A stretch of DNA of 64,000 nt from Anaerolineae bacterium. Its GTDB lineage: Bacteria; Chloroflexota; Anaerolineae; B4-G1; DUEL01. Location: positions 1,235 through 65,234 of the forward strand of contig JBDOIF010000152.1 of the NCBI GenBank assembly GCA_041082215.1, written 5' to 3'. Positions 9,462 through 63,279 of the stretch are shown piece by piece (within the stretch, counting starts at the first letter, position 1; each line of letters opens with the position of its first letter). A program made the position numbers and the translations under genes. The notes beneath the pieces were generated by a model. It was not told where the DNA came from and did no database searches. It saw only the letters and a list, made by a program, of their open reading frames with translations.

Positions 9462-9471
9462 CGCTCACCCC

Positions 9472-43365: not shown

Positions 43366-45471
43366 TTACGAAACCGGCTCCACCCGCACCGCGCAGACCT
43401 TGTACTCCGGGATTTTGGCGAGGGGGTCCAGCGCGGCGTGGGTGAGCGCGTTCGCCGCCGCCTCCGCGTAGTGGAAGGGGATGAAGACGACGCCGGGCCG
43501 GATGCGCTTCGTCAGCCGCACCGCAACCTCGATCTCCCCTCGGCGACTCATCACCCGCACCCGCCGAGCGCCGTCCAGGCCGATGCGGGCCGCGTCGTCC
43601 GGATGCATCTCCACATACGGCTCCGGCGCCTCCTGCTCCAGTTTGGGCGACCGGCGGGTCATGGTGCCGGTGTGGAACTGGAACATGGTGCGGCCCGTGG
43701 TCAGGATGAACGGGTACTCCTCATCGGGCAGTTCCGCCGCCTCCTGGAACTCTATCGCGTGGAAGCGGCCCAGGCCTCGGGTGAACTTCTCCTTGTGCAG
43801 GTACGGGGTGCCGGGGTGTTCGGCCGACGGGACGGGCCACTGCAGGGAGCCCTCCCGGTCCAGCCGCTCGTAGGTGACGCCGCCGTAGGAGGGCGCGACG
43901 CGGGCGATTTCAGACATGATTTCGGCGGGGGAGGAGTAGTCCCATTGCGTATTGCGTATTGCGTATTGCGTATCGCGTGCTGCGTGTTGCGTAAGGCGCT
44001 TGGCCAGTTCACAGAGGATTTCCCAGTCGGCCTTGGCCTGGCCCGGCGGGTCCACGGCCTTCCGCACCCGCTGGATGCGCCGGTCGGTGGCGGTGAAGGT
44101 GCCGTCTTTCTCGGCAAACGATGCGCCCGGCAGAACCACGTGCGCCAGTTGTGCCGTCTCCGTCAGGAAGATGTCCTGAACGACCAGGAAGTCCAGTTTC
44201 TCCAGGCACTCCCGCGCGTGGTGGATGTCGGGGTCGGAGAGAAGGGGGTTCTCGCCCATCACGAAGAGGCCCCGCAGGCGCCCCTCCCCTGCCGCGTGGA
44301 CCATCTCCACGACGGTCATGCCAACCTTGTCGGACAACCCCTCCATGCCCCAGGCGGCCTCAAATCTGGCCTTCGCCTCCGGCGAGGTGACGGGCTGGTA
44401 GGCCGGGTAGACGTTGGGGAGGCCGCCCATGTCGCAGGCGCCCTGGACGTTGTTCTGGCCCCGCAGGGGGTTGACCCCGCCGCCAGGGACGCCCAGATTG
44501 CCGGTGAGCATGGCCAGGTTGGCTACGCTCTTGACGTTGTCGGTGCCGGTGGTGTGCTGGGTGATCCCCATTGCATAGAGAATGGCGGCAGGCTTGTTCT
44601 GGGCGTACATCCGCGCCGCGGCGCGCAGGTCCTCCGCTGGGATGCCGGTAATCTCCTCCACCCGCTCCGGCGGGTACTGCTGGACCACCTGCCACATTTC
44701 CTCAAAGCCCTCGGTCCGCTGCCGGATAAACTCCTGGTCGGCCAGTTCCTCGGTGATGATGACGTACATCAGGCCGTTGAGCCAGGCGACATCGGTGCCG
44801 GGGCGGGGGCGCAGGTAGAGGTCGGCCATCCGGCCGATCTGGACCTCGCGCGGGTCGATGACGACAATTTTCGCCCCCCGCTCCTTTGCTTTGAGGACAT
44901 GGCTGGCGATGAGGGGGTGGCCCTCGGTGGTGTTGGAGCCGGTGATCAGGAAGCAGCGGGTGTATTCGCTGAACTCCGGGATGGAGTTAGTCATCGCGCC
45001 ACTGCCGAATGCGGCGGCCAGACCGGCCACCGTGGGGGCGTGTCAGAGACGGGCGCAGTGGTCCACGTTGTTGGTCCTGAAGACGGCGCGGGCCAGTTTC
45101 TGGGCCAGGTAGTTCTCCTCGTTGGTGCACTTGGCGGAGACCAGGAAGCCCAGGGCGTCGGGGCCGTATGTGTCGCGGATGTGGAGCAGCCGATCCGCGA
45201 CCAGGCCCAGCGCCTCGTCCCAGGACGCCTCCCGGAACCCCCCCTGTGTCCCCCCCGCATGCAGGGGGGAGCGGATGAGGGGGGTCGTCAGCCGGTCCGG
45301 GTGGCGGACGAAGGCGGTGGCGTTCCAGCCCTTGATGCAGAGTTTCCCCCCGCTGACGGGGTGCTCCTTCGCCGGCAACACCCCGACGATTTCGCCGTCC
45401 AGCACCTGGATGTAGAGGCCGCATCCGGTGCCGCAGTAGGGGCAGGTAGTGAAGATGTTTCGGTAGTCCAT
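43366..45471 (-). CDS. fdhA: Formate dehydrogenase catalytic subunit (FdhF/FdhA-type), selenocysteine-containing; in-frame TGA at 45043..45045 read as Sec
   Basis: Tracked ORFs 45043..45513 and 43366..45030 are in the same frame and together align with FdhF: CPYCGTGCG...NNVDHCARL-[TGA]-HAPTVAGL (E. coli: CARV-U-HGPSVAGL). Downstream MGITQHTTG, RGQNNVQGACDMG and a C-terminal KVCAVRVEP are molybdopterin-enzyme motifs. N-terminus placed at MDY (45471); the tracked upstream 14 aa are repeat-derived. Confidence 0.85.
43944..43995. repeat. TTGCGTA heptanucleotide tandem array (about 7 units) in frame inside fdhA
   Basis: attgcgtattgcgtattgcgtattgcgtatcgcgtgctgcgtgttgcgtaag, translated as ...[12 protein letters not shown]..., an insertion relative to the E. 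coli FdhF alignment. Confidence 0.7.
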
Positions 45472-45513
45472 AGGGTACTCCGTGTTACGTATTCCGTATT
45501 GCGTGTCCTGCAT

Positions 45514-47772: not shown

Positions 47773-48083
47773 TCAGGTTCCCAGTAGTCCTCGCTGGGCA
47801 GGTAAGCAGTGATGATTGCCAGATAATCCTTCTTCGGCGCACAGACTACGTGCACCGGACGACCCATATGCCCCCAACCCAGCATCAGGCAACTATGCCC
47901 CCGGGCATCCTCCGGATAGTCTTCTATCACTTCGCCGTAGAGAACCACCGCGCGAACTTCATCCGGAGAAATCATCCGGTCAGGAGCATTCATCTGATGT
48001 AAGGCGTGCGGCAGGTAAAGAATCCGCTTCGCAGCAGCTTCTCTAACCTTCTCCAGAATGCTCCTATGGCTCTCGGGTCTCAT
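47751..48083 (-). CDS. DUF4258-family toxin-like protein
   Basis: MRPESHRSILEKVREAAAKRILYLPHALHQMNAPDRMISPDEV...; its ATG (48083..48081) overlaps the TGA of the upstream fdhB-like gene by 1 nt. Confidence 0.6.
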   Translation of the reverse strand: MRPESHRSILEKVREAAAKRILYLPHALHQMNAPDRMISPDEVRAVVLYGEVIEDYPEDARGHSCLMLGWGHMGRPVHVVCAPKKDYLAIITAYLPSEDYWEPDWRTRKR

Positions 48084-48913
48084 CACTCCATACCTACCAT
48101 CGGCCCCTCCGCCAGCGTCAGCGACAGCGGCGGGGCGGCGGCGAGGTCCGCTCCTGGCTCGTACCCCAACAACTCCCCCACATCGCGCCGGATCAGGTCG
48201 TAGAGGACGGTCAGCGGGATGTGGGCCGGGCAGGTCAGTTCGCACTGGCGGCAGCCGACGCAGCGGGCCGCCATGTGCATGGCCCGGATAAGGTGGAAGG
48301 ACGGGAAGGGCGGGGCCAGCACCCCCGGCTCCACCCAGAGCGGGTCCTCCAGCGCGCAGGCCTCGCAGAAGCACTCCGGGCAGATGTTGCGGCAGCCGTA
48401 GCACTTGATGCATTTGGCGAACTGCTCCCGCCAGAAGGCCCAGCGCTCCGCCCAATCCATACTCTCGTACCGGGCGATGATGGGGTTGGGCGAGCCAGCG
48501 AGAGCTGGCGTCCCCAGCGCCACGGCTTGAGGCCAGCCCTCCGTCTTCGGGAAGGGGGCATCGCAGTGGCACGCCTCCGCCTCCTCCGCGGTGCAGGCCA
48601 CCCCCAGGATGTACAGGCGCTCGGGGTCTATCTGATTCCGCTTGGCCATCTCCACCAGCGCGCGCAGATCGCAGGCACGGGCGACAATGCCGAAGCGGGC
48701 CTGCGGGTAGCGCTTCTGGAGCAGGGAGACGACGGACGCCAGAGGGTAGCGAGGGGAGAGAACCAGTTCGGAGAGGTCATCTCCCTGGCGGAAGAGATAC
48801 GGCGCGGTGCCCACAGCCGTCCGCCGCAGGCCGACAACGCCGTCCAGTTCAGGAAGTTTCTCCGCCACGTGGGCGCGCAGGGTGTCCAAAAGGTCGTTAT
48901 CGGTCATCGGCAA
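48083..48913 (-). CDS. FrhB/FdhB-family iron-sulfur protein (putative formate dehydrogenase beta / electron-transfer subunit)
   Basis: An FrhB_FdhB-like core (FGIVARACDLRALVEMAKRNQIDPERLYILGVAC) and two C-terminal Cys clusters (CIKCYGCRNICPECFCEAC; CVGCRQCELTCP). Its last ~25 codons are encoded by repeat copy B. Confidence 0.5.
   Translation of the reverse strand: MPMTDNDLLDTLRAHVAEKLPELDGVVGLRRTAVGTAPYLFRQGDDLSELVLSPRYPLASVVSLLQKRYPQARFGIVARACDLRALVEMAKRNQIDPERLYILGVACTAEEAEACHCDAPFPKTEGWPQAVALGTPALAGSPNPIIARYESMDWAERWAFWREQFAKCIKCYGCRNICPECFCEACALEDPLWVEPGVLAPPFPSFHLIRAMHMAARCVGCRQCELTCPAHIPLTVLYDLIRRDVGELLGYEPGADLAAAPPLSLTLAEGPMVGME
48104..48176. repeat. 73-bp direct repeat, copy B, forming the 3' end of the fdhB-like gene
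   Basis: See copy A; together they bracket the YgiT/DUF4258 cassette. Confidence 0.8.
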
Positions 48914-50109: not shown

Positions 50110-50538
50110 TCATACCGGTTTTCCCAGGATCAACGCGATGCGCTCCCGCTCCAGCGGGGCGAGATCCCCCGCACGGCGCAGGACGTAGAGGTCGTACTCG
50201 TCGGCGTCGTCCTCGTCGCGGGCGTGGAGGCGCTCACCCCGGATAATCTCCGCTGCCAGGAAGGGGTCCGCGTCGTCCAGCGAGACCAGGTCCACCCTAT
50301 GGACGCCGAAGAGGTCCTCCAGGGCAATCGCCAGCCGGACCTTGTCGTGGACGGAGAGCCGGAGTCCCCGCGCGGGCTTCACCCCGATGTCCAGGTCGGA
50401 CGGGCCCGGGGTCAGAGCCGGGAGTCCCCCCTCCAGCCACGCCCGGGCCTCCCCGGCCCGGCTGCCGAAGGCATAGAGGATGTCCACGCCGAAGGATTCG
50501 CAGAGTTGCCGGAGCCGCACGCTCCGGTCCTCGTTCAT
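50110..50538 (-). CDS. mntA: MntA-like nucleotidyltransferase antitoxin
   Basis: ILYAFGSRAG...SDLDIGV. Confidence 0.75.
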   Translation of the reverse strand: MNEDRSVRLRQLCESFGVDILYAFGSRAGEARAWLEGGLPALTPGPSDLDIGVKPARGLRLSVHDKVRLAIALEDLFGVHRVDLVSLDDADPFLAAEIIRGERLHARDEDDADEYDLYVLRRAGDLAPLERERIALILGKPV

Positions 50539-50552
50539 TTCTCCATCTCCTC

Positions 50553-50762
50553 CTACTTCCGGTGACGGGTGGCCTCAAGTTCCTCTGGACTCCAGCTCGC
50601 CTCCGGCGGTCGCCTACCCACCACTGTTTCCCGTACCGGCACAATCATCACCACCGGCAGACCGTCCCGCTCCACGATGAAGGTCTCGCCGTCCCGATAC
50701 ACCCGCCGGATCACCTCCCCAAACCGGTTCTTCGCCTCCGTCGCCGAAATGACCGTGGGCAT
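50553..50762 (-). CDS. Phd/YefM-family antitoxin (apparent orphan)
   Basis: MPTVISATEAKNRFGEVIRRVYRDGETFIVERDGLPVVMIVPV. Confidence 0.7.
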   Translation of the reverse strand: MPTVISATEAKNRFGEVIRRVYRDGETFIVERDGLPVVMIVPVRETVVGRRPPEASWSPEELEATRHRK

Positions 50763-50855
50763 CGCTTCGCCTCCTTCCAGATTGGCTAACACAATCCAAT
50801 TATAGCCGACGTTGCCCAATCTGGTAAGCGCGCGTAGCGCGAGATTTATCTTGCG

Positions 50856-51275
50856 CTACAGGCCCAGTTCCTGCTCGATCGGCCCCAGGGCGCGGATGGT
50901 CTCCACGAACTCGGCGGTCACCTGGGCAAACTTGGGGGCCTCCGCCGAGGAGACCCAGTCCAGTCGCAGCCGCTGGGGGTTGATGCCCACGTAGGAAAGC
51001 AGGTTACGCAGCAGGGGCATCCGTTTGGCGGTGCGGTGATTACCGTTGATGTAATGGCAGTCGCCGATGTGGCAGCCCAGCACCAGCACCCCGTCGGCGC
51101 CAGCGCGAAAGGCCCGCAGCACCATTTCCGGCGACACCCGCCCGGAGCACATCACCCGGATGGGCAGGACGTTGGGCGGCGACTTCATCCGCGCGATGCC
51201 CGCGTTATCGGCTCCGGCGTAGGAGCACCAGTTGCACAGAAAAGCGACAATGCGAGGTTGAAAAACTTCGCTCAT
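50856..51275 (-). CDS. mvhD: MvhD/FlxD-type hydrogenase iron-sulfur subunit (HdrA-associated)
   Basis: IVAFLCNWCSYAGAD...VMCSGRVSPEMVLRAF..GADGVLVLGCHIGDCHY. Confidence 0.85.
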   Translation of the reverse strand: MSEVFQPRIVAFLCNWCSYAGADNAGIARMKSPPNVLPIRVMCSGRVSPEMVLRAFRAGADGVLVLGCHIGDCHYINGNHRTAKRMPLLRNLLSYVGINPQRLRLDWVSSAEAPKFAQVTAEFVETIRALGPIEQELGL

Positions 51276-51301: not shown

Positions 51302-51802
51302 TTATGACATGGGCACTTCGCTCAGGAGTTCAGAAAGTTCGGCATCAGGGTCGGTGGTAGAGTAGAGATAGGGCGCGCTACTTTCACACAGTTGTACGAT
51401 ACCGGTGGTTTCCCGCTCCTCAGGAATAATAGAGAGGAGCAGGCGGACAATCTGGGTCAGCAGGTGGAGCCGATGAGCCAGGACAGCCTCTTTCAGGCCA
51501 TGGCGCCCCTCGTAGTACCAGGTTCGGGCCTCGCGGGCGGAGCCCAGGGCGTACTCGTAGAATCGGGCCCGCTCCTTCCCGGACCGGCGGCTGTACCCTT
51601 CGGCGATGTTGGCGGCGATAGAACCCAGGGCCCGATATAACTGGTCGGCCAGGCCGCGCATCCGGGCATCCTCAGCCAGCACCGAAACATCGTGCCAGCC
51701 CAGGTCGGCAGCGAAGAGGGCCAGCCGGTACACCCGCATCTGCCAGAGCGGATCCGCCGTAATCTCCGACGGCACGCTCTGCAACCACTCCTCGTGCGTC
51801 AT
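51302..51802 (-). CDS. Four-helix-bundle protein (TIGR02436 / 23S-rRNA-IVS-protein family)
   Basis: MTHEEWLQS...YRLALFAADL...LGSIAANIAEGYSRRSGKERARFYEYALGSAREARTWYYEG is characteristic of this family; the tracked N-terminal 24 aa are repeat-derived. Confidence 0.7.
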   Translation of the reverse strand: MTHEEWLQSVPSEITADPLWQMRVYRLALFAADLGWHDVSVLAEDARMRGLADQLYRALGSIAANIAEGYSRRSGKERARFYEYALGSAREARTWYYEGRHGLKEAVLAHRLHLLTQIVRLLLSIIPEERETTGIVQLCESSAPYLYSTTDPDAELSELLSEVPMS

Positions 51803-51825
51803 CGCCCACCTCCAACGGAACATGG

Positions 51826-51870
51826 AGTACGGAATACGTGCTGCGTACTGCGTATTCCGTATTCCGTGCT
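51826..51870. repeat. TACGGAA-family palindromic repeat hairpin between the 4HB gene and hdrA
   Basis: ggagtacggaatacgTGCTGCGTACTGcgtattccgtattccgtgctcc. Confidence 0.6.
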
Positions 51871-51877
51871 CCACGCG

Positions 51878-53833
51878 CTACACCCAGACGCCCGCTAAGA
51901 GGCCCTCTATCTGCGCCACAATCTGCTCGTCGGTAAAGTGAAGGCCGGTGATGGCATGGGATGGGCAGGTGGCGACGCAGGTGCCACATCCCTGACACAG
52001 CGCCGGGTTTACCTGCGCTTTCCCTTCCACGCGGGAGATCGCGGAGTAAGGGCAGGCCAGGATGCACTCACCGCACCCCACGCAGGCCTCCCGATCCACC
52101 ACGGCGACGGTGGGCGATATGGTGACCTCGCCCTGGTTGAACAACCGCACCACCTCCAGCGCCGCCGCCCCGGCATGGGCCACCGTGTCGGGGATGTCCC
52201 GTGGCCCCTGGGCACAGCCGGCCAGGAAGACCCCCGCCGTGGCCGTCTCCACCGGCCGCAGTTTGGGGTGCGCTTCGGCAAACCAGCCGTCGGGTGTGCG
52301 GCCCAGGCCGAACAACGGGGCGATGCGGTCCACATCGGGCTGCGGCTCGATGGCCGACTCCAGGATCACCAGGTCCACGTCCACAAACACCAGCCGTCCC
52401 AGGTTGGCATCCTCTCCCTTCACGCGGAGTTTGCCATCCGGCATGACTTCCACCTCGGCTCCCTTGCCCCGGACGAAGACGACTCCCTCCTCCTGCACCC
52501 GCTCGTAGAACTCCTCATAGGCCTTGCCGAAGGCCCGCATATCCATATAGAAATCGTACACCTCGGCTCCGGTCTTATCCCGCACCTGGTGGGCGTGCTT
52601 GAGGGCGTACATGCAACAGATGCGGGAGCAGTAAGGGTGAGCGTTCTCGTCGCGGCTGCCGACGCAATGGATGATGGCCACCCGCTGGGGCTTCTTCCCC
52701 TCGGCGGTGACGATCTCCCCCCCGGTGGGGCCGGTGGCGCTGGTGAGCCGCTCAAACTGTAGCCCGGTGATGATATTGGGCGAGAGGCCGTAGGAATACT
52801 GCGGAAGTTTCGCGGGGTCCCACATCGCAAACCCGGTCGCCACGATGATGGCGCCGACCTGAACTTCGAGCAGTTGATCCTCCTGGGTGTAATCAATCGC
52901 CCCGGTGGGGCAGAACTTCTCGCAGACCTTACACTTGCCCTGGGTAAAGAACCGGCAGTTCTCCCGGTCAATCACCGGGATGTTCGGGATGGCCTGGGCG
53001 AAGGGGCGGTAGATGGCCTTCCGCTTCCCCATCCCCGCCTCGAAGGCTGTATCCACCACTTTGGTGGGGCACTTCTCCTGGCAGAGGCCACAGCCGGTGC
53101 ACTTCTCCTCATCCACCGACCGCGCCCGTTTGCGGATGCGGGCGGTGAAATGGCCCACATAGCCGGAGACCTCTTCAACTTCACTGTAGGTCAGGAGGGT
53201 GATGTTGGGATGCCGACCGGCATCCATCATCTTGGGGCCCAGGATTCAGGTACTACAGTCCAGCGTGGGGAAAGTCTTATCCAACTGGGCCATATGGCCG
53301 CCGATGGATGGCTCCCGTTCCACCAGATAGACCGGGTAGCCCGCGTCAGCGATGGAGAGGGCGGCCTGGATGCCGGCGATGCCGCCGCCCACCACCAGCG
53401 CCGCTTTTGTCACCGGCTCCCGCCGGGGCTCCAGCGGGGCCTGGTATGCCACCCGGAAAACCGCCGACCGCACCAGCCGCTTCGCCTTCTCCGTGGCTGC
53501 CTCTTTATCATCGGTGATCCAGGAGACATGCTCGCGGATGTTGGCCATCTGGAAGAAATAGGGGTTGAGCCCGGCGGCCCCCAGGGCTCGCTGGAAGGTC
53601 GTCTCGTGCATCCGGGGGGTGCAGGACGCCACCACGACCCGGTTCAGGCCCAGGTTGCGGATGTCCTCCTGGATCATCAACTGGCCCGGCTCGGAGCACA
53701 TGTACTTGTACACCCGGGCGACGGCGACGCCAGGCAGTTTAGAAGCCATCTCTGCGACCGCCTCCACATCCACCGTGGCCGAGATATTGATGCCGCATTC
53801 ACAGATGTAGACGCCGATTCGGGGTTGCTCCAT
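51878..53833 (-). CDS. hdrA: Heterodisulfide reductase subunit A, selenocysteine-containing paralog 1; in-frame TGA at 53246..53248
   Basis: Tracked ORFs 53246..53971 and 51878..53230 are in one frame: ...GGGIAGIQAAL...KTFPTLDCST-[TGA]-ILGPKMMDAGRHPNITLLTYSEV..., which aligns with the HdrA consensus KTFPTLDCS-x-C-ILxPKMVEVxRHPNI with TGA at the Cys position. Also an FAD Rossmann motif, four or more ferredoxin Cys clusters, and an N-terminal YICECG. Start set at MEQPRIGVY. Confidence 0.85.
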
Positions 53834-53865
53834 AGCGAGCGCTCCTTCCATTTCGGTCTCAGACA

Positions 53866-55065
53866 TCAGGACTCTGCAGCCTGAATAGACTGCCAGAGCA
53901 GTTCCATTACATCCATTGCCCGCACGCGGATGCGGTTCTGCCGCGCTCCTTCCTGGAGGGTGCGCTTGCACTGCTGGCAGGCGGACGCCAGGATGCTGGC
54001 TCCTGTCGCCTGGATCTGGGCCAGCCGTTTTGCCGCGACGCCCATTGTGACAGCAGGGTCAGCCATCTCTACATCTCCGCCGCCGCCACAGCACAGCGCG
54101 CTCTGGCGAGACATAGACATCTCTCTCAATTCCAGCCCCGGAATGCGGGTCAGTATTTCCCGGGGTGGATCATATACGCCGCTCTTGCGCCCCAGGTCAC
54201 AGGGGTCGTGATAGGTCACCACGCCTTCCACTGGTCCCAATGGCGGGGCGGATTGTGCCATTCGTTCTGCCAGGAACTCGGTAGCATGCTGGAAATGGAG
54301 CCCTCGCACATCCGCCATCTCCGGATACAGGTGGGACCAGGCGTAGTAACAGGACGGACAGGTGAAGACCACCCTTTCCGCGCCCACCCTGCGCACCTGT
54401 TCCAGGTTGTGTCGGGCGATTTCCGCCATCTGATCCCGCAGTCCCGCGACATAGAGCGGGTATCCGCAACACCACTCGTCTCCGCCCAGGGTGGTAAACT
54501 CCACCTCTGCCCGCTCCAGCACTTTGACCGTTGCCTGAGGGATGGAGTACGCGCGCGGGTAGAACGACCCCACGCATCCCACAAAATAAACGACCTCCGC
54601 CGTTCGCCGCAGGGGTTGCACGCCCACCGGTGGGTCGGGCATATTCTGGCTCCATACCAGACGGTTGGCGTTCTCGTCGCCGGAGATGTTGTACTGGCTG
54701 GTGACGGTCTGGCTGACTCGCAGCAGCAGTTGGGGGACTTCCAGGCCCTGGCGCTGGACGTACTCCCGAAGGGCCACCATCGTATCCGTGATCTGGATGC
54801 CCCGGGGGCAACGGACCTGGCAGGACTTACAAACCGTGCAGAGCCAGAAGGTGCGGCTGGTCAATACCTCCGCCGTTAGTCCCAGCTGCACCATTCGCCA
54901 CAACTGACGCGGGGTATAATCCATCGCGTAGGAGGTGGGACAGGAAGCGGAGCATGTGCCGCACTGGATGCAGGAGAGAATCTTTTCCCAGCGGCCGGGG
55001 GTCACCTGCTGAGCAAACGTCCGGTCCGCCTGGGCGAGGTCCAGGATTTCAGGGGGGTTGGTCAT
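53866..55065 (-). CDS. HdrC-HdrB fusion protein (HdrD/GlpC-like; 2x[4Fe-4S] + two CCG domains)
   Basis: N-terminal CIQCGTCSASCP...CTVCKSCQVRCP; C-terminal CCG motifs (DEWCCGYP..., LCCGGGG). Confidence 0.8.
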   Translation of the reverse strand: MTNPPEILDLAQADRTFAQQVTPGRWEKILSCIQCGTCSASCPTSYAMDYTPRQLWRMVQLGLTAEVLTSRTFWLCTVCKSCQVRCPRGIQITDTMVALREYVQRQGLEVPQLLLRVSQTVTSQYNISGDENANRLVWSQNMPDPPVGVQPLRRTAEVVYFVGCVGSFYPRAYSIPQATVKVLERAEVEFTTLGGDEWCCGYPLYVAGLRDQMAEIARHNLEQVRRVGAERVVFTCPSCYYAWSHLYPEMADVRGLHFQHATEFLAERMAQSAPPLGPVEGVVTYHDPCDLGRKSGVYDPPREILTRIPGLELREMSMSRQSALCCGGGGDVEMADPAVTMGVAAKRLAQIQATGASILASACQQCKRTLQEGARQNRIRVRAMDVMELLWQSIQAAES

Positions 55066-55196
55066 CTACAGCCTCCCGGTTTGGGATTCAGAAGCAGCGG
55101 GGGATGTTGTATCACATAAACTATATCCTGTCAAGAGAAATACCTGAAGGATACAGCAGGCATCGTGTCGGGTAACCTGGCAAACCCTTATTGAAA

Positions 55197-55238
55197 GAAG
55201 CGTTTTGCGATGGCAAAGTCATCGCAAAACGCTTCTAT
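55197..55238. terminator. Perfect 16-bp-stem hairpin (GAAGCGTTTTGCGATG gcaaagt CATCGCAAAACGCTTC) downstream of the FNT-REC gene
   Basis: Unusually AT-rich palindrome in the 190-bp gap between the FNT-REC gene and the hdrCB gene. Confidence 0.45.
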
Positions 55239-55256
55239 GTAGTAGTAAACCGGCCC

Positions 55257-56522
55257 TTATCCGCCCGCCTGGGGCAAAAAGCGGCGAACGGTGTGCAGAA
55301 GATGGTCCGGGTCTATCGGTTTGCTGATCCAGGCGTCTATCGGGATGTGCAGGGTATCGGGCAGAAGGCCAGCGTACTGGCTGCTATCAATGCTGGAGAC
55401 CATCACCACCGGGATAGGCCGCAGGGCCGGGTCCGCCGCGATTTCCTGGGCGACACCCGCGCCTTCCAGCGGCGTCGCCATCATCACGTCCAGCATGACC
55501 AGGTCCGGCTTCTCCTCCCGCATCATCTTCAACGCCTGCTGCCCGTTGCTGGCGGTCGCGACCTGATACCCCGCTTTGCTGAGAATCCGCCGGGAGAGGT
55601 CCACGAAGTCCGGGTCATCGTCCACCACCAGAATCCTCAGCGCCACTCCTGGCTTGACCTCCACCTTCTTCTTCGGTCGCAGATAGATGAACCAGTAGGC
55701 CAGGCCGACAAAGCCTGCGCCGCCGATGATGTTCCCGATGGTCACCGGCAGCAGATTTCTCAGGAAGAAGCCCCCCCAGGTAAGCGCGGCGAAGTCGGCG
55801 GGCGTCTTGCCGATGGCTTCCCAGAAAGCCGCTGGTGCCCATGACTTGATGAAAAGGCCGATCGGGATGAGGTACATATTGGCGATACTGTGCTCAAACC
55901 CGGCGGCGACAAAGGCAGTAATGGGGAAGATGATGGAGAGGATTTTATCCGTTGTGGACCGGGCCGACGCGCAGAGCCACACCGCCAGGCAGACCAGCGC
56001 ATTACACATAATGCCCAGCGCGGTGGCCTGAAGGAATCCCAGGCTGCATTTCGCGTTGGCGATAGAGAGTGCGTTCAATCCCAGCGCGCCCGAGGCAAAG
56101 GTGTACTGGCTGGTAAGAAACATCACCAGCGCGGTGAAGATAGAACCGATGAAGTTGCCCGCGTAGACAATGGCCCAGTTGCGCAGGAGTTGGACAGTGG
56201 TGACCCGGCGGCTGGCGTAGGCCATCACAATGAGATTGTTGCCGGTGAACAGTTCTGCCCCAGCGACCACGACCGCGATCAGGCCGAGGCAGAAGACCAG
56301 GCCGCCTGCCAGCCGGATCAGTCCATACGGCACACCAGCCGCGCTCAAGCCGGTCGTCACGGTGGTCAGGAAGATACCACCCGTTCCGATAAACGCGCCG
56401 GCCAGAACGGCAAGAGCGAACATCGTCCAGAAATCCAGGTTCGCTTTGGTGACCCCCACCTCTTCCATACGGCTGGCCATTTTCGCCGGTGGGAAGGCAT
56501 CAATTTGCAATTCACTGCTCAT
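55257..56522 (-). CDS. Formate/nitrite transporter (FocA/FNT) fused to a C-terminal response-regulator receiver domain
   Basis: An FNT core (FLTTVTTGLSAAG...LFTGNN...AAGFEHSIANMY) followed by RILVVDDDPDFVDLSRRILSKAGYQVATASNGQQALKMMREEKPDLVMLDVMM..., i.e. a CheY-like REC with the phospho-acceptor Asp context. Confidence 0.75.
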   Translation of the reverse strand: MSSELQIDAFPPAKMASRMEEVGVTKANLDFWTMFALAVLAGAFIGTGGIFLTTVTTGLSAAGVPYGLIRLAGGLVFCLGLIAVVVAGAELFTGNNLIVMAYASRRVTTVQLLRNWAIVYAGNFIGSIFTALVMFLTSQYTFASGALGLNALSIANAKCSLGFLQATALGIMCNALVCLAVWLCASARSTTDKILSIIFPITAFVAAGFEHSIANMYLIPIGLFIKSWAPAAFWEAIGKTPADFAALTWGGFFLRNLLPVTIGNIIGGAGFVGLAYWFIYLRPKKKVEVKPGVALRILVVDDDPDFVDLSRRILSKAGYQVATASNGQQALKMMREEKPDLVMLDVMMATPLEGAGVAQEIAADPALRPIPVVMVSSIDSSQYAGLLPDTLHIPIDAWISKPIDPDHLLHTVRRFLPQAGG

Positions 56523-56590
56523 CGGTCTCCTCCTGTGGAAGCGGGATGGATTAGAACGGTTCCTGCAGTGTGCAACTGCATCCGGCTATG

Positions 56591-56779
56591 TTATTGTGCC
56601 ACCAGTTCCACCACGTCCATCACCCGGATACGGAGTTTCTCGTGCCGGGCTGCGCCCGCCAGGGTCCGCTTGCACTGATGGCAGTTGGAGAGCAGGATTT
56701 TCGCGCCTGTGACCTGTACCTCACCGATGCGCCGCTGGGGGACCGCTGCGACCAGTTCTTTGCGCCTCTGCGGTGGGTT
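56591..56779 (-). pseudogene. In-frame HdrB C-terminal remnant following the hdrC TGA (deletion scar, or part of a recoded read-through)
   Basis: After the TGA at 56780..56782 the same frame continues NPPQRRKELVAAVPQRRIGEVQVTGAKILLSNCHQCKRTLAGAARHEKLRIRVMDVVELVAQ*, homologous to the C-terminus of the HdrCB fusion (ILASACQQCKRTLQEGARQNRIRVRAMDVMELLWQ). Confidence 0.45.
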
Positions 56780-57160
56780 TCATCCTGTGGCCTTTCCCAG
56801 GACCGCCCGCACCCGCCCGGGTGGGGCCAGCTCCACCGGTTCCAATCCCCACAGCGCGCGCCCTTCATTGACCTCCGGGCCCACACACAGGGCATAGCCA
56901 CAGGCCAGGACATTCTCAAAGGCCTGTCGGTACCCCTCCGGCGCCGACCTTCGGCGGCGTGCTTCCATCATCAACTCGTGGATGTCCACCCCGGCGGGGC
57001 AGGCCTCCTGGCAGCGCCAGCAGGAGGTGCAGAGCCACACATCGTAAACAGGATCACCGGCCAGGAAGGAGACGATGGCGTGCCCTCCCACCGTCTCCAC
57101 CGGGCAGACGGTGACACAGAGGCCACAGCCCAAACACTCGTCCGGTCGGTTCACTGCCAT
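56780..57160 (-). CDS. hdrC: Heterodisulfide reductase subunit C-like ferredoxin
   Basis: CLGCGLCVTVCP...CTSCWRCQEACP. Confidence 0.75.
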   Translation of the reverse strand: MAVNRPDECLGCGLCVTVCPVETVGGHAIVSFLAGDPVYDVWLCTSCWRCQEACPAGVDIHELMMEARRRRSAPEGYRQAFENVLACGYALCVGPEVNEGRALWGLEPVELAPPGRVRAVLGKATG

Positions 57161-58005
57161 TCCTCCTTCCGCAGCCCCAGCCGCTCCGCCGGAAGCCCCA
57201 TTGCCAGCCCGATCAACTGTGGCAGAAGGAGCGCTCGCCTGCGCAGGGCTTCGTCATTGCCCGCAATCTTGCGCTGAAAGCGACGGAGGAGCAAATGGCA
57301 GTTCCCGCAAGCATAGAGCAGCAGGTCGGCCTCTTGCACCGCCTCGAGTCTCCGCCGCCCGGCCCTCAGGGCCAGTTCTGGATCGGCCAGATAGACCGTC
57401 GCCCCGCAGCACTCGTCCTCCCCGCCATACTCCAGGACCTCCGCGCCGGTCAGCTCCACCAGGCGGCGAAGGCTCTGTGGTTCCACCGGGTCGTCGAAGC
57501 CCATCACCTCGCCGGGGCGAAAGGCCTGGCAGGGGTTGATGAACGCCACCCGGAAGGGTAGCGGGCGGACGATCCGCGCCCGCACTCCCTCCTCCCGCTC
57601 GGCCAGCAACCGGATCAGGTGGATCGGCTCCACCTCCCCCGCGACCGAAAGCCCCATTGGCTCCAGCCGCCGGTTCGCCTCGGTCCGCACCCTGGGATCG
57701 GCCCGGAGCGCGCGAGCGGCGCGGGCCAGGGTGTTGGTGCAACCCCCGCACACTGTGACCACCTGCCGGTGGCCCATCCGCTCCACCAGCGCCAGGTTGT
57801 AGGCTGCCAGGTAAACCCAATCAGCGGTGAAGGATTCGACGACGGGCGAGCCACAACAGGCGGCCTGCTGGACCAGCTCCAGTTCCATTCCCAGCGCCTC
57901 CAGCACCGCCCGGGTGGCCGCCTCGTATTCGGGCATGCGCTGGAGGACCAGGCAGCCGGGGTAGAAGGCAAATTGCAGGTTACAGGTTGCAGACTGCAGA
58001 GCCAA
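57151..58005 (-). CDS. hdrB: Heterodisulfide reductase subunit B-like (two CCG domains)
   Basis: FYPGC...CCGSP and INPCQ...CCGAT motifs; the N-terminal ~10 aa overlap a CAGGTTR repeat (57975..58002), so the start is uncertain. Confidence 0.75.
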   Translation of the reverse strand: MALQSATCNLQFAFYPGCLVLQRMPEYEAATRAVLEALGMELELVQQAACCGSPVVESFTADWVYLAAYNLALVERMGHRQVVTVCGGCTNTLARAARALRADPRVRTEANRRLEPMGLSVAGEVEPIHLIRLLAEREEGVRARIVRPLPFRVAFINPCQAFRPGEVMGFDDPVEPQSLRRLVELTGAEVLEYGGEDECCGATVYLADPELALRAGRRRLEAVQEADLLLYACGNCHLLLRRFQRKIAGNDEALRRRALLLPQLIGLAMGLPAERLGLRKEEWQ

Positions 58006-58087: not shown

Positions 58088-59128
58088 TTACAGCGCCACC
58101 ACCCGGGCGAAGTCCGCCGGGGTCACGCCGGGGGTCTCGATATGGTACTCGGCATAGAAGCGGGAGATGATCGGCTCCACTTCCTCCAGCCTTGCCCCTA
58201 TCAGTGCGCTTTCCAGATCTGTCAGCCGCTCCGCTGGATAGAAGAAGAAGTCGCCAGAGAGGGAGACACTCTCGATCACTCCTTCTCGCACCTCGGCCGT
58301 GGCGCGGATGAGGCCGCCGGGGGCTTTGTAGGCCCGCTGAACCACCTGGACGCCGGAGCGGATGGTGACGGCACGGCCTTCCTGGGGCCGGCCGTGGCGG
58401 AACAGCCACTCGTCGGTGAGCATCCTCTGCGCCAGCCGGTCCGCCTCCGCCCGCCATTCGGCATCCACCTCCGTCACCACCTCCATCGGCCCCAGCACAT
58501 CGGCGAACCTCTCCGCCAGCAGGTCCCACAGTTCCTCGCGCGGCGGCGCTGTGCCCAGCTCCCTCCGGATAGTGGAGAGATTATCCTGCAGGGTCTTGTA
58601 GACTTTATCGCGGAACTTCTCGTCGGGCACCCGCAGCACCCGTACCATCGTCTCGTAGTCAAAATCCACAATCAGGTTGCCGACGAAGACGATGTAGTCG
58701 CCGATCTCGGCCACGCCGTTGCCGGAAATCTTGCGGCCGTTGGCGATGATGTCGTTGACCGGCTTGTACTCGGCGGGGATGCCCAGAGCCCGGTAGGCGG
58801 CGATGGGGGCCTGGAGAAACTTCTGGTAGAACGCTGCCTTGTCCTTCGGGACCAGCGGGTTATCCTTGTGGATGATTAACTGGTAGAAGAGTTGTTCGCC
58901 ATCCAGATAGACGGCGCCCCCTCCCACCTCTCGCCGGAAGACCGGAATGCCGCGCTCCCGGCAGTAGTCCAGGTCCACCTCCTGCGCGGCGTCCTGGAAG
59001 TAGCCGATGCAGACGTAGGGGGATGCAGGGGAAAGCAGATTCAGCCCCTCCCGCCCGATGCGAGGAAGGGCATGGTAGAGAATTTGGGAGTCCTGCCAGG
59101 GTACGGTCTCGAGGCGGTAGAGTTTCAT
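58088..59128 (-). CDS. lplA: Lipoate-protein ligase A-like (LplA/LipB/BirA catalytic fold + LplA C-terminal domain)
   Basis: MKLYRLETVPWQDSQILYHAL...RREVGGGAVYLDGEQL...K(I)SGNG lysine motif; AGGAGG RBS before the ATG at 59128. The tracked N-terminal 11 aa are rejected. Confidence 0.7.
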   Translation of the reverse strand: MKLYRLETVPWQDSQILYHALPRIGREGLNLLSPASPYVCIGYFQDAAQEVDLDYCRERGIPVFRREVGGGAVYLDGEQLFYQLIIHKDNPLVPKDKAAFYQKFLQAPIAAYRALGIPAEYKPVNDIIANGRKISGNGVAEIGDYIVFVGNLIVDFDYETMVRVLRVPDEKFRDKVYKTLQDNLSTIRRELGTAPPREELWDLLAERFADVLGPMEVVTEVDAEWRAEADRLAQRMLTDEWLFRHGRPQEGRAVTIRSGVQVVQRAYKAPGGLIRATAEVREGVIESVSLSGDFFFYPAERLTDLESALIGARLEEVEPIISRFYAEYHIETPGVTPADFARVVAL

Positions 59129-59149
59129 GAATTCCTCCTGTTTTTGGGT

Positions 59150-59238
59150 GTCGGGCGTCAAACGTCAGGCGTCAAACGTCAAACGTCAAACGTCAGGCGT
59201 CAAACGTCAAACGTCAAACGTCAAACGTCAGGCATCAA
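59150..59238. repeat. Tandem array of about 13 GTCAAAC / GTCAGGC heptamers
   Basis: gtcgggcgtcaaacgtcaggcgtcaaacgtcaaacgtcaaacgtcaggc...gtcaggcatcaacc, between mvhD2 and lplA. Confidence 0.85.
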
Positions 59239-59656
59239 CCGCTGCTCGCATCTCCAGCGGGCCCAGCCGGCGCACCTTTTCGGTGAACTCCCGCACCGTC
59301 TGGGCAAACAGCTCCCCCTCCGAGGAAGAGACCCACTTGACCAGGAATCGCTCCGGCTCGATGCCGGTGAACGCCAGCAGGGCCTTGAGGACCGGCATTC
59401 GGCGGGCGGTGCGGTGGTTGCCGGTGGCGTAGTGGCAGTCGCCGATATGGCAACCCAGCACCATTACCCCATCGGCTCCCTCTTTGAAAGCGCGGATCAC
59501 CAGCTCCGGCGCGACCCGTCCCGAGCAGGGGACGCGGATGATCTTGAGGTTGGGAGGGTACTTCAGCCGGGTCGCCCCGGCCAGGTCCGCTCCGGCATAA
59601 CTGCACCAGTTGCAGAGGAAACCGATGATCTTCGGCTCGTAAGCCTGCTCGCTCAT
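59228..59656 (-). CDS. mvhD: MvhD/FlxD-type iron-sulfur subunit, paralog 2
   Basis: IIGFLCNWCSYAGADLAG...VPCSGRVAPELVIRAF..GADGVMVLGCHIGDCHY. Confidence 0.85.
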   Translation of the reverse strand: MSEQAYEPKIIGFLCNWCSYAGADLAGATRLKYPPNLKIIRVPCSGRVAPELVIRAFKEGADGVMVLGCHIGDCHYATGNHRTARRMPVLKALLAFTGIEPERFLVKWVSSSEGELFAQTVREFTEKVRRLGPLEMRAAVDA

Positions 59657-59665
59657 CCCAGCCTC

Positions 59666-59715
59666 CTACGGAATACGCAGTACGTACTACGTATTGCGTG
59701 TCGCGTATTGCGCCC
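59666..59715. repeat. TACGGAA/TATTGCG-family repeat overlapping the hdrA2 3' end
   Basis: ctacggaatacgcagtacgtactacgtattgcgtgtcgcgtattgcgc; it encodes the last residues (AMRAQYATRNT) of the tracked HdrA2 ORF. Confidence 0.6.
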
Positions 59716-61678
59716 GCATCGCGAAGATCGCCCCCATCATCTCCGAAACCAGTTGCCGGTCGGTGAAGTGACGGAGGGTGATCGCTTTGGAAGGGCAGGC
59801 TCCGGCGCAGGTGCCGCACCCCTTGCAGAGCGCATCGATCACATGGGCGACCCTGCGCTCTTTCAGGTATTCGATGGCCGCGTACGGACAGGACTGGATA
59901 CACTGCCCGCAGCCGGTGCACATCAGCTCGTCCACGAGGGCGGTGGCCGACTCTACCTTCACCTCTCCCTGGCCGATGAGGGAAAGGACCCGCGCCGCCG
60001 CCGCCGAGCCCTGGGCCACCGAGTCCGGGATGTCCTTCGGCCCCTGAGCGCACCCGGCGACGAGCACCCCGTCGGTCATCGTCGCCACCGGGTCCAGCTT
60101 GGGGTGCTTTTCCCTGAACCACCCGTCGGCGTCGGTGCTGATGCCGAAGAGACGGGCCACTTCCCGGCTGTCGTGGCGCGGTTCCAGGCCGATCGCCAGC
60201 ACCACCATATCCACCGGCAGCCGTCGCTGCCGCCCCACCAGGGAATCGTCGAACTGGACGACCAGTTTTCCCTCCTCCTCCGGCCCGCGTGCAGCGTCCG
60301 TCACCTGGGCCACCTTCCCGCGGATGAAGTGGATCCCCTCATCCAGCATCCGGTGGTAGAACTCCTCATATAGCTTGCCGGGGGCGCGAATGTCAATATA
60401 GAAGTTATATACCTCGGCGTGGGTCTTATGGCGGATCAGGTGGGCCAGCTTCAGGGAGTACATACAGCAGACCCGGGAGCAGTATTCGTGGTACTTCTTG
60501 TCCCGGCTGCCCACGCAGTGGATGATGGCCACCTGTCGGGGGACCGTTTCCCCATCCCGCAGGACCACCTTGCCGCCGGTAGGACCAGCCCCGCTGAGCA
60601 TCCGCTCCATCTCCAGGCTGGTGAAGACGTTGGGGAAACGGCCGTAGCCGTACTGGGGAATCCGTCGGGCGTCGAAGGGATCGAAGCCGGTGGCGAGGAT
60701 GATGTTGCCCACCTGGACCTCCAGGATGGTGTCCTGCTGGTTGTAGTCTATGGCGCCGGTGGGGCAGACCTTTTCACAGAGGCGGCAACGGCCTTTGGTA
60801 AACCAGAGGCAGTTGTCGCGGTCAATGACGGGGACGGGGGGCACTGCCTGGGCGAAGGGGCGGTAGACCGCCTTCCGATACCCCAGCCCCGCCTCGTAGG
60901 CGGCGTCAACGACTTTCGTGGGGCACTTTTCCTCACACGTACCGCATCCGGTGCACTTCTCTGCATCCACCGACCGGGCCCGAACGCGGATGCGGACCAC
61001 AAAGTTGCCCACATAGCCGGAGACGCTTTCCACCTCGCTGTAGGTCAGGAGATTGATGTTGGGATGCCGACCGGCATCCATCATTTTGGGCCCGAGAATT
61101 CAGGCACTACAGTCGAGCGTGGGGAAGGTCTCATCCAGTTGAGCCATCCGGCCGCCGATGGAAGGCTCCCGTTCCACCAGATAGACCGGGTAGCCGGCGT
61201 TGGCCAGCTCCAGGGCCGCCTGGATGCCGGTGATCCCCCCGCCGACGACCAGCGTGGCCGGGTTGATGCGCACCCGGTTTTCCTCCAGGGGCTGGTGGTG
61301 GCGCACCCTTAGGACCGCCGCCTCGACCAGGGCTTTTGCCTTCCCGGTGGCGATCTCGGGGTCATCGTGGACCCAGGAACACTGTTCGCGGATGTTGGCC
61401 ATCTCGAAGAAGTAGGGGTTGAGACCTGCCTCTGCCACAGCTCGCTGGAAGGTCGGCTCGTGCATCCGCGGGGTGCAGGAAGCCACCACCACCCGGTCCA
61501 GTCCCAGCTCCTGAATGTCCTTTTTGATCAGCTCCTGGCCCAGGCTGGAACACATGAAGCGGTAGTCGCGGGCCACGGCCACCCCCGGCAGGTCGGCGGC
61601 CCAGCGGGCCACCTCCGCCACGTCTACCACACCGGCGATGTTGGAACCACAGTGGCAGATGTAGACGCCGATCTTCAT
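59687..61678 (-). CDS. hdrA: Heterodisulfide reductase subunit A, selenocysteine-containing paralog 2; in-frame TGA at 61100..61102
   Basis: Tracked ORFs 61100..61708 and 59687..61084 share a frame: ...ETFPTLDCSA-[TGA]-ILGPKMMDAGRHPNINLLTYSEV...; the same architecture as paralog 1 (about 75% identity by eye). Start set at MKIGVY. Confidence 0.85.
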
Positions 61679-61753
61679 CGAGCACCCCCATTTGTAGTTG
61701 TGCGGCACTTCGCTACGCTTCGTGCCTCAATACGAACACCCAACCGTTTGTAG

Positions 61754-62740
61754 TCAGCGACGGAGCGAAGCGGAGTCGCGCTGTACGGCCGCCAGCGGTT
61801 CGGGCATCGGCAGGCCGGTCCGCTCCCGGCGCGGTTTGCGTTCCGCTGTCTCCTCTTCGGGTGGCGGGTTGCGGAACTTCTCCAGCACCCGTTCCGCCGA
61901 CACGATCTCCTGCCCAAAGCCCAGTTTCTCCGGCTCCAATCCGAAGGCCAGGCCCATCATCTGGGTGAAGTAGAGGACCGGGATGTGGAAATCGGTGCCG
62001 AAGTGGGAGTTGACCTGTCCCTGGTAGGCGTCCAGGTTGAGCTGGCACATCGGGCAGGCAGTGACGAGGGCGTCCACCTCCAGCTTGGCCGCGTTGTAGA
62101 GCAGGTAGTGGATCATCCTGTAGGCGGTCTCGGCGTCCAACTGGGTCATATGGCCGCCGCAGCAGTTGGCCCGCAGGGTGTAATCCACCACCTCCGCCCC
62201 CAGCGTCTCCAGCAGCCGCTCCATCCGCGAGGGGTATTCGAAGTTGTCGCGCCCCTCTGGGCGGACAGTGACACAGCCGTAGTAGGCGGCCAGCCGCAGC
62301 CCCCGCAGCGGCGCCTTCACGTGGGCTCCGATCTCCTCCAGGCTGAAATCCTCCACAACCACCTCCAGCGCGTGGCGGGAGTGGACCCGGCCCGGATCAT
62401 AGTGGAGCTTCCCCGCCGCCAGCGCCTCGTTCACCGCCGCTGCCAGCTTGGGATGGGCAAGCATATTCTTGTCGGTCTTCAGCATATTGTAGTAACAGGC
62501 GGAGCAGGGGGCCACCACCTCCTTCAGGTCGGGGGGCACCAGCGCCAGGTTGCGGGCCACCAGCGCGTAAGCGGGGAGCAGGTCGAGGGAAAAGTACTCC
62601 GTTGCCCCGCAGCAGTTCCAATCGGGGATCTCCACCAGCTCGATCCCCAGAACCTCTGCCACGGCGCGGAAAGACTCGTCGTAGGCCGCAGCGTTCCGTT
62701 CCAGCGAACAACCGGGGTAGTAGGCGTACCGTCTCACCAT
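61754..62740 (-). CDS. hdrB: Heterodisulfide reductase subunit B-like, paralog 3
   Basis: MVRRYAYYPGC...NCCGATE and GCV...NCCGGH CCG motifs; start set at the ATG 62740 (GGGAGGTG RBS), and the long tracked upstream extension is rejected. Confidence 0.8.
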   Translation of the reverse strand: MVRRYAYYPGCSLERNAAAYDESFRAVAEVLGIELVEIPDWNCCGATEYFSLDLLPAYALVARNLALVPPDLKEVVAPCSACYYNMLKTDKNMLAHPKLAAAVNEALAAGKLHYDPGRVHSRHALEVVVEDFSLEEIGAHVKAPLRGLRLAAYYGCVTVRPEGRDNFEYPSRMERLLETLGAEVVDYTLRANCCGGHMTQLDAETAYRMIHYLLYNAAKLEVDALVTACPMCQLNLDAYQGQVNSHFGTDFHIPVLYFTQMMGLAFGLEPEKLGFGQEIVSAERVLEKFRNPPPEEETAERKPRRERTGLPMPEPLAAVQRDSASLRR

Positions 62741-63279
62741 GCACCTCCCAGTTCTTTGGCCCTGCGGAGGATAGCGCGCAGTTGGCGGATGCCCTGGATC
62801 CGTTTGGGCGTGAAGGACATCCGGCCCCGGGTCACCATGCCCAGCATCAGGGGGGACATGCGGATGCTCTGGAGGGGATGGTGGCGAAGGTAGTGCCCGG
62901 TCGCCAGACCCAGTTCGAAACTGCGCCCGTAAGTCTCCACCTGCCCCACGAAGGTCTCGGAGAAGCCGGTGATGGAAGCAGTGTAGTAGCCAGCCTGGAT
63001 GGCCAGCCGCTTGAGCTGGTACATAATGTCTGTGATCGGGATCTCCTGGGGGCAGCGGATGGTGCAGTAGTAGCAGGAGACGCAGAACCAGAAGGTGTTG
63101 CTTTTGAGGACCTCCTCCCGCATTCCGGCCAGGATCATTGCGAAGATCTCCCGCGGCGTGTAGTCCATAGCCGGGCCGGAAGGGCACGACCCGCCACAGG
63201 AACCGCACTGAATACAGGCCCTCAGCCGCTCCCCGCCGGGGATCGCCATCACCTCTTCTAGGAAGCTCTTTTCTGCCAT
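62734..63279 (-). CDS. hdrC: Heterodisulfide reductase subunit C-like, paralog 3
   Basis: CIQCGSCGGSCP...CVSCYYCTIRCP; start set at MAEKSF (could be MARRRD at 63324). Confidence 0.75.
   Translation of the reverse strand: MAEKSFLEEVMAIPGGERLRACIQCGSCGGSCPSGPAMDYTPREIFAMILAGMREEVLKSNTFWFCVSCYYCTIRCPQEIPITDIMYQLKRLAIQAGYYTASITGFSETFVGQVETYGRSFELGLATGHYLRHHPLQSIRMSPLMLGMVTRGRMSFTPKRIQGIRQLRAILRRAKELGGAW

Follow-up and report, generated by a model that had tools for sequence, protein, structure and literature searches.

Does a formate channel that carries a receiver domain on its cytoplasmic end answer directly to a two-component pathway? The question is raised by focA-REC, a minus-strand gene in a 64,000-nucleotide (nt) stretch of an Anaerolineae bacterium genome (assembly GCA_041082215.1, contig JBDOIF010000152.1, positions 1,235 to 65,234; the whole stretch is called the window below). 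The gene encodes a FocA-type channel belonging to the FNT (formate/nitrite transporter) family fused to a C-terminal phospho-receiver (REC) domain, amid formate dehydrogenase (Fdh) and heterodisulfide reductase (Hdr) genes, and an earlier sequence-only reading proposed that the fusion places formate passage under direct two-component control. The architecture is conserved in a family of proteins, both of its parts are under purifying selection, the pore and phospho-acceptor residues are intact, and the gene is linked to kinase genes and to an Fdh/Hdr operon. The family is apparently unstudied; its members may be regarded as response regulators with a channel output or as FocA proteins with a new regulatory appendage, and do not constitute a new category of protein.

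A channel and a receiver in one reading frame

The gene and the parts of its product are laid out as follows.

55257..56522, minus strand: focA-REC coding sequence, a single 421-aa open reading frame (ORF) including the start, with stop TAA at 55257-55259 and Pfam matches to FNT and REC
56527..56534, minus strand: Shine-Dalgarno-like GGAGGAGA, 4 nt 5' of the ATG, read off the sequence
55689..56480, minus strand: FNT channel domain, residues 15-278, from Pfam, NCBIfam, alignment and model, with an N-terminal helix at residues 12-27
55677..55685, minus strand: Y280-L281-R282 motif directly after transmembrane helix 6 (TM6), from alignment to FocA structures
55638..55676, minus strand: linker, residues 283-295, PKKKVEVKPGVAL, 13 residues, basic, with the family motif RPxKVVEVKPGVAP
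55275..55637, minus strand: REC domain, residues 296-416, from Pfam, alignment and model
55488..55490, minus strand: codon of D345, the predicted phospho-acceptor Asp (LDVMM), invariant in 121 of 121 sequences

Inspection of the ORF places the start at the ATG at 56520-56522 and reads through 55257..56522 (minus strand) without an internal stop or frameshift, confirming the uninterrupted passage from FNT to REC that the sequence-only reading had described. That reading had also taken the protein to consist of a full FocA-like FNT and a complete CheY-like REC, and both are well over their Pfam thresholds: PF01226 (Form_Nir_trans) matches residues 15-278 (E 5e-79, 265.5 bits, cut-off 34.6) and PF00072 (Response_reg) matches residues 297-412 (E 9.6e-21, 74.5 bits, cut-off 30.2).

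The simplest objection, that adjacent focA and response regulator genes were joined by a sequencing or assembly error into a chimera, by a recent frameshift, or in a decaying pseudogene, can be dismissed with near certainty. The fusion is not a sequencing or assembly artefact because it recurs in frame and at the same length in at least 120 clusters, found in a search that covered 5.8 billion proteins and derived from independent samples, and in the genomes of 27 GTDB species. The linker has an identical length throughout the 121 aligned sequences, and both parts are under purifying selection, with ratios of nonsynonymous to synonymous substitution rates of 0.04-0.08 for FNT (0.05-0.08 against four close relatives) and 0.11-0.19 for REC. 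Nothing in the window supports an artefact, although one relative, L028, does carry a frameshifted, decayed REC.

The channel part

The channel part passes the NCBIfam equivalog model TIGR04060, 'formate transporter FocA' (302.6 against a cut-off of 290.1), and scores too low for NF008069, the enterobacterial FocA model (292 against a cut-off of 440). It aligns end to end with the FocA structures of Vibrio, Salmonella and E. coli (E about 1e-76 to 1e-78) at 48-50% identity, the alignment reaching the terminal "YWFIYLR". An AlphaFold2 monomer model of the whole protein (predicted local distance difference test, pLDDT, 82.8; predicted TM-score 0.74) shows an aquaporin-like fold of six transmembrane helices, mostly at pLDDT >85 in the FNT part; Foldseek matches the model to E. 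coli FocA 9g49 with a TM-score of 0.92, a root-mean-square deviation of 2.4 Å and 48% identity, and returns no solved structure that covers both FNT and REC.

The pore residues T93 and H211 and the Phe gate F77/F204/F209 are invariant in the 121-sequence alignment; they correspond to E. coli FocA T91, H209 and F75/F202/F207, whose roles have been described (PMC12559229). Just past TM6, Y280 is invariant and L281 and R282 are at least 90% conserved; the corresponding Y278-L279-R280 of E. coli FocA is required for the translocation of formate in both directions (PMC5572259). Both termini of FocA are cytoplasmic (PMC5572259), the C-terminus touches the gating helix at the N-terminus and swivels as the channel "breathes", and flux through the E. 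coli protein is controlled by PflB and other cytoplasmic partners (PMC12559229). Judged by these residues, FocA-REC is probably a working FocA-type channel for formate/formic acid, with pentamer formation and translocation predicted as well.

The linker and the receiver

The cytoplasmic location assumed for REC is upheld by that of the FocA termini (PMC5572259), and the linker is short and basic (RPKKKVEVKPGVA), as had been claimed. The acidic pocket and the phospho-acceptor Asp, D345, are the VVDDDPD and LDVMM motifs that the sequence-only reading had quoted, and D301/D302/D303, D345, S376, W398 and K401-P402 are invariant in all 121 sequences. Pseudo-receivers usually lose some of the residues for Mg2+ binding, phosphorylation or switching; since every catalytic residue is invariant here, a pseudo-receiver is ruled out.

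The receiver fold looks atypical at one point of the model. The model contains β1-β5 and α1, α2, α3 and α5, while the 'α4' segment, residues 377-396, is mostly loop at a pLDDT of about 49. This segment and β5 form the most conserved REC surface outside the active site, with entropies of 0.65 and 0.29, respectively, against 1.1-1.5 for α1-α3. The α4-β5-α5 face is the usual output face of receivers.

A compact, lineage-restricted family

Among the matches listed, all 120 clusters combine PF01226 with PF00072, at 92 to 72% identity and a length of about 417 aa, and the organisms named are Anaerolineae/Chloroflexota metagenome-assembled genomes. As a single ORF, the fusion is found in 27 GTDB species representatives (L001-L027), all of them Anaerolineae-type Chloroflexota; the nearest are 92-93% identical to the window protein and are labeled Thermoflexus, Thermoflexales or Anaerolineae. 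About 50 other Anaerolineae have an unfused FocA with 63-71% identity. At 50% clustering the fused proteins collapse to essentially one representative, P0121, plus fragments, which marks the family as compact and lineage-restricted.

In a rough neighbor-joining tree, one clade holds 26 of the 28 fused proteins and also four members that do not have a REC; L026 and L027 lie elsewhere. In L028 (6506-7700) the channel part is 90% identical and the REC, decayed by frameshifts and stops, is still recognizable in the DNA and lower in GC, a state that may reflect either natural loss or assembly errors; L029, L032 and L033 end right after "YLRPxK". These relationships fit one main fusion event, or possibly two, followed by occasional loss of REC. 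The losses in L028, L029, L032 and L033 indicate that the channel works without REC.

The belief that an FNT-REC architecture had not been described stands to the extent that no FNT-receiver protein was found in the searchable literature, including an FNT phylogeny paper and a census of archaeal two-component systems, a coverage that leaves out most subscription journals; within the Anaerolineae, however, the fusion is not rare. Whether it counts as common and annotated has a similarly divided answer. Domain-architecture databases certainly contain these proteins, because both Pfam matches are precomputed on them, but the names given to the listed clusters are solely "formate transporter (FocA)" or "response regulator". 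The idea of a receiver-bearing FNT would surprise both the FNT and the two-component fields while being lineage-restricted and visible in databases, its function being putative.

Kinases next to the fused gene

A kinase module directly adjoins the fused gene in relatives L082-L086 (74-85% identity), the genes overlapping or lying closely spaced. One component, seen in L082-L085, is a ~650-aa histidine kinase (HK) with a Cache_3-Cache_2/HAMP/HisKA/HATPase arrangement (Cache-HK); the module also has one or two ~380-aa REC-HisKA-HATPase kinases (REC-HK), the only kind that L086 shows. The Cache domain is flanked by two transmembrane helices and therefore faces outward, whereas the REC-HKs are soluble. 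Compared with the PDB, the Cache domain yields weak matches to chemoreceptor ligand-binding domains (E 9e-7), which are uninformative on its ligand. By orthologue-level scores, 13-14 of the 27 species loci have a Cache-HK no more than 10 kb from the fused gene and 15-16 have a REC-HK at such a distance, fractions that are lower bounds because many contigs are short; neither kinase occurs near any of roughly 49 unfused focA genes. In the four loci annotated with Pfam (L082, L084, L085 and L086) the module contains no DNA-binding response regulator, which leaves FocA-REC as its natural terminal receiver. One relative, L022, has two tandem full-length focA-REC paralogues (9941-12593), 69% and 48% identical to the window protein, that adjoin the kinase module and the Hdr/Fdh operon.

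The same module lends itself to a reversed reading, in which the channel is a sensor (a 'transceptor' or co-sensor): formate occupancy or flux would alter REC phosphorylation or dephosphorylation, FocA-REC would drain phosphate from the REC-HK/Cache-HK network, or modulate it, in a formate-dependent manner, and the real output of that network would lie elsewhere, for instance in a stand-alone REC or in transcription. There is precedent in Ks-Amt5, in which an ammonium-channel domain senses for a fused histidine kinase (PMC5764959), and the REC-HK-FNT fusions of Planctomycetota, described below, resemble kinases for which an FNT serves as input. In L082 and L085, small REC genes that stand alone close to the module could supply such an output, and several module kinases have REC inputs of their own, as is typical of branched phosphorelays. 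Yet a REC receives and does not transmit, the transport residues of FocA-REC are intact, the module already owns an outward-facing Cache sensor, and the gene heads an operon that consumes formate and so needs an importer that works. We consider a sensor role unlikely, if worth keeping in mind.

Elsewhere in the window, a truncated ORF at 5-274 was considered as a kinase tail and rejected. A 642-aa protein encoded at 17755-19683 (minus strand) has the HisKA_7TM N-terminal region as its sole Pfam match at a 1e-5 threshold, with no kinase domain detected at that level, and may be an atypical seven-transmembrane receptor.

The formate dehydrogenase and heterodisulfide reductase locus

The Fdh/Hdr setting attributed to focA-REC is correct: Hdr-like, MvhD and FdhA genes surround it.

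53866..55065, minus strand: HdrD-like protein (two CCG domains and 4Fe-4S), immediately 3' of focA-REC, an adjacency kept in at least 11 related loci
51878..53971, minus strand: HdrA-like flavoprotein with an in-frame TGA (selenocysteine) at 53246-53248
50856..51275, minus strand: MvhD (FlpD) subunit
48083..48913, minus strand: 276-aa Fe-S (Fer4) protein, conserved between MvhD and FdhA in related loci
43366..45513, minus strand: FdhA-type molybdopterin formate dehydrogenase with an in-frame TGA (selenocysteine) at 45043-45045
56780..58005, minus strand: HdrC-like (56780-57160) and HdrB-like (57151-58005) proteins, upstream of focA-REC
58088..59161, minus strand: lipoate-protein ligase (LplA-type), upstream of focA-REC
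59228..63208, minus strand: second MvhD (59228-59656), second HdrA with selenocysteine (59687-61708) and a CCG-domain protein (61754-63208)
55196..55236, minus strand: 17-bp perfect hairpin, about 20 nt past the focA-REC stop and followed by UUUC, between focA-REC and the hdrD-like gene

On the minus strand the window order is lplA, hdrB-like, hdrC-like, focA-REC, hdrD-like, hdrA, mvhD, toxin-antitoxin genes, the 276-aa Fe-S gene, GmrSD, fdhA and mobA. focA-REC is the first gene of a conserved operon with hdrD-like, hdrA, mvhD, Fer4 and fdhA genes, hdrA and fdhA both being predicted to encode selenocysteine; at least 11 related loci share the order (lplA) - focA-REC - hdrD-like - hdrA - mvhD - Fe-S - fdhA. 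MvhD lies near 12 of 27 fused genes as against none of 50 unfused focA genes, and FdhA near 16 of 27 as against 34 of 50. The lplA gene is an upstream neighbor in 7 of the 27 fused loci, directly adjacent in most of them, whereas here the hdrB-like and hdrC-like genes intervene. No glycyl-radical enzyme occurs among the five window ORFs longer than 600 aa, the neighbors of focA-REC being Hdr, MvhD and Fdh genes.

An in-frame TGA occupies the classic selenocysteine position in both HdrA proteins ('LDCS[U]ILGPK', at 53246-53248 and 61100-61102, minus strand) and in FdhA ('CARL[U]H', 45043-45045, minus strand). ORF callers halve each of these three genes, and the splits repeat in related loci. 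The selenium-dependent complex of Fdh, MvhD and HdrA type is probably electron-bifurcating.

The conserved order also bears on a second alternative, in which REC is a phosphorylation-independent docking or assembly domain that tethers the Fdh-MvhD-Hdr complex at the channel mouth as a metabolon, or else stabilizes the pentamer. E. coli FocA is itself controlled through contact with a cytoplasmic enzyme, the docking PflB (PMC12559229, PMC5572259), the gene order with Hdr and Fdh genes is tightly conserved, and the α4 region is unusual yet conserved, as in some atypical receivers. A docking domain would leave unexplained why the Mg2+-binding, phosphorylation and Ser/aromatic/Lys switch residues are all invariant in 121 sequences and why dedicated kinases are co-located with the fused gene, and we regard this alternative as improbable.

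The hairpin at 55196..55236 has a minimum free energy of -36.7 kcal/mol (z = -5.36; none of 200 shuffles was equally stable) and was not called by the terminator scan because its T-run is short; it may be a repeat element, or it may terminate or attenuate transcription and so set how much enzyme is made relative to channel. A sigma-70 promoter scan of 54900-57000 gave zero sites, and the only terminator called in that interval lies inside the coding sequence (one call, against a shuffle mean of 1.9). No regulatory RNA was detected near focA-REC at Rfam gathering thresholds; the single Rfam family in the window at those thresholds is a bacterial large signal recognition particle RNA at 14123-14386 (minus strand, 172 bits).

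Two further observations concern the neighborhood. The hdrA-mvhD-FeS-fdhA operon is interrupted at 45514-47193, 49656-50819 and 51302-51874 by probable mobile or defense genes, namely those for a GmrSD-type restriction protein, a HepT/MNT pair, a Phd antitoxin and a protein of the 23S-rRNA intervening sequence (IVS) type. The GmrSD-type gene has an unusually low GC content at third codon positions (0.54 against about 0.8), and the related loci do not have the GmrSD, HepT/MNT, Phd and IVS insertions. In a related locus, L081, a lipoate-protein ligase and a GcvH-like protein (8465-9975) are encoded upstream of focA-REC within the Hdr-like cluster. Such genes in an Hdr-like cluster recall the sHdr systems, which depend on lipoate-binding proteins, and the Hdr-like complex encoded in this window may be something other than a classical heterodisulfide reductase.

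Other FNT fusions and split versions

An exhaustive search of representatives combined with Pfam reveals further FNT fusions: REC-FNT with an N-terminal receiver (P0138, P0151, P0174), FNT-CBS (P0131, P0166) and FNT-PilZ (P0125). The N-terminal REC-FNT proteins (the P0151 family) are diverse, come from Planctomycetota where the source is named, and keep the phospho-acceptor residues. P0278 and P0281, also from Planctomycetota, follow the order REC - (HisKA gap) - HATPase - FNT, and along its full length their kinase part shares 35% identity with the Anaerolineae REC-HK, as compared with 26% for the window kinase encoded at 378-1772. A 'split' version exists in L069 (9962-11466), where an unfused focA has a free-standing REC gene 144 nt upstream; the encoded REC is 46% identical to the fused one and shares its unusual α4 segment. 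These Rosetta-stone links support the view that this type of REC, the REC-HK kinases and the FNT channels would work together physically.

The FNT-CBS, FNT-PilZ, REC-FNT and REC-HisKA-HATPase-FNT proteins bear no informative source names, and descriptions of them were not found in the searches made. P0130, P0158, P0216, P0123 and P0129 have unannotated extensions.

Proposed phosphorylation control of the channel

We judge it somewhat more probable than its contrary that phosphorylation of D345 modulates the gating of the channel or the direction of formate flux, as the terminal output of a Cache-HK/REC-HK pathway. Of the direct two-component control that the sequence-only reading had proposed, the phospho-residues, invariant in 121 sequences, and the adjacent kinases in relatives are in place; phosphotransfer, its effect on gating, the sign of that effect and the kinase ligand we infer.

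The channel would be the output domain of a response regulator, its cytoplasmic C-terminus bearing a phosphorylatable REC. A two-component pathway would phosphorylate D345; in relatives it would comprise the outward-facing Cache_3-Cache_2 sensor kinase and one or two soluble REC-HKs, whereas here it would be encoded outside the window. A change at the α4-β5 face of REC would be passed through the short linker of fixed length to the Y-L-R motif and the C-terminal region, and from there to the N-terminal helix that this region contacts, all of them parts with a known role in controlling translocation by E. coli FocA. Formate flux could in this way be switched on or off, or biased in direction, within seconds and without new transcription, so that formate would be supplied in step with the selenium-dependent FdhA-MvhD-HdrA(-HdrD-like) complex, whose genes are presumably co-transcribed with focA-REC. 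The kinase ligand may be external formate.

Several observations weigh against phosphorylation control. A candidate cognate kinase stands beside the fused gene as Cache-HK or REC-HK in about half of the related loci, but nothing in the 64-kb window scores above 150 bits against either, and the nearest relatives, L001-L004, on contigs that are mostly short, have no adjacent module either. The only complete histidine kinase of the window, the REC-HisKA-HATPase protein encoded at 378-1772, is rejected as an orthologue of the module kinases: it shares just 25-28% identity with them, as against 64-73% among themselves. The partner kinase of this genome is either encoded outside the 64 kb or missing. 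A few clade members (L028, L029, L032 and L033) have a decayed REC or none, which is compatible with an added regulator yet also shows that REC is dispensable. REC domains usually signal by dimerizing, which is awkward under a five-fold symmetric channel, and the model gives no α4 helix (pLDDT about 49), so that switching may depart from the usual mechanism.

Comparison with known systems

FocA-REC shares the pore His and Thr, the Phe gate, the N-terminal helix and the YLR motif with the FocA proteins of E. coli, Salmonella and Vibrio (PDB 3KCU, 3Q7K, 3KLY, 9G49). Those proteins end 3-5 residues past YLR, whereas the window protein adds a 13-residue linker and a 120-residue receiver; they are regulated by pH and by cytoplasmic PflB/TdcE, glycyl-radical enzymes with no counterpart among the window ORFs longer than 600 aa.

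Response regulators with outputs other than DNA binding are familiar from the CheY, CheB and PleD type. FocA-REC has the same canonical receiver active site and probably takes its phosphate from a histidine kinase encoded nearby in relatives; it differs in that the presumed output is an integral-membrane channel, that REC is C-terminal to it, and that a conserved segment, modeled mostly as loop, takes the place of α4. No characterized REC-gated channel was found in the searchable literature. Ks-Amt5 likewise joins a channel-family membrane domain covalently to two-component machinery (PMC5764959), but it combines a non-transporting sensor channel with a transmitter kinase, whereas FocA-REC has a receiver and keeps all transport residues. 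The window protein consists of FNT and REC only, with no HisKA/HATPase transmitter; the channel-kinase fusion is found in P0278 and P0281.

Channels gated by fused cytoplasmic sensor domains are well known, as with CBS domains in ClC and MgtE and RCK domains in K+ channels. Like these, and like FNT-CBS and FNT-PilZ, FocA-REC has a soluble regulatory domain on the cytoplasmic end of the channel protomer; CBS, RCK and PilZ domains bind small ligands (nucleotides, cyclic di-GMP), whereas the input to FocA-REC would be aspartyl phosphorylation by a kinase cascade. The variety of partners shows that FNTs tolerate and repeatedly acquire soluble regulatory domains.

The Planctomycetota REC-FNT and REC-HK-FNT proteins (the P0151 family, P0278, P0281) also combine an FNT with a receiver whose phospho-acceptor residues are intact and are named only 'formate/nitrite transporter'. 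Their REC, however, is at the N-terminus, the known gating end of FocA, their FNT belongs to another subfamily (41-43% identity to the window protein), and in the single context examined for REC-FNT no kinase or formate genes lie nearby. The N-terminal REC-FNT is an independent fusion event. A bolder proposition, to which we give slightly less than an even chance, is that FocA-REC would be the first membrane channel found to be gated directly by aspartyl phosphorylation of an attached receiver, forming the transcription-free end of a dedicated Cache-HK to REC-HK cascade, and that FNTs came under receiver control at least twice, through a C-terminal REC in Anaerolineae and an N-terminal one in Planctomycetota.

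Implications

Two-component systems are mostly known for controlling transcription, motility and second messengers. If the proposed control is real, a receiver on a metabolite channel would provide fast post-translational control of passage across the membrane. For the FNT field, the fusion would be a natural, genetically tractable switch, operable through D345 mutants or BeF3-, with which to address a long-standing problem, namely how FocA gating and transport direction depend on its two cytoplasmic termini, and the pair of Cache kinase and channel could serve engineering as a compact sensor-actuator module. Formate is one of the main currencies of interspecies electron transfer, and for anaerobic ecology the finding would bear on how formate is handled by the abundant, mostly uncultured Anaerolineae.

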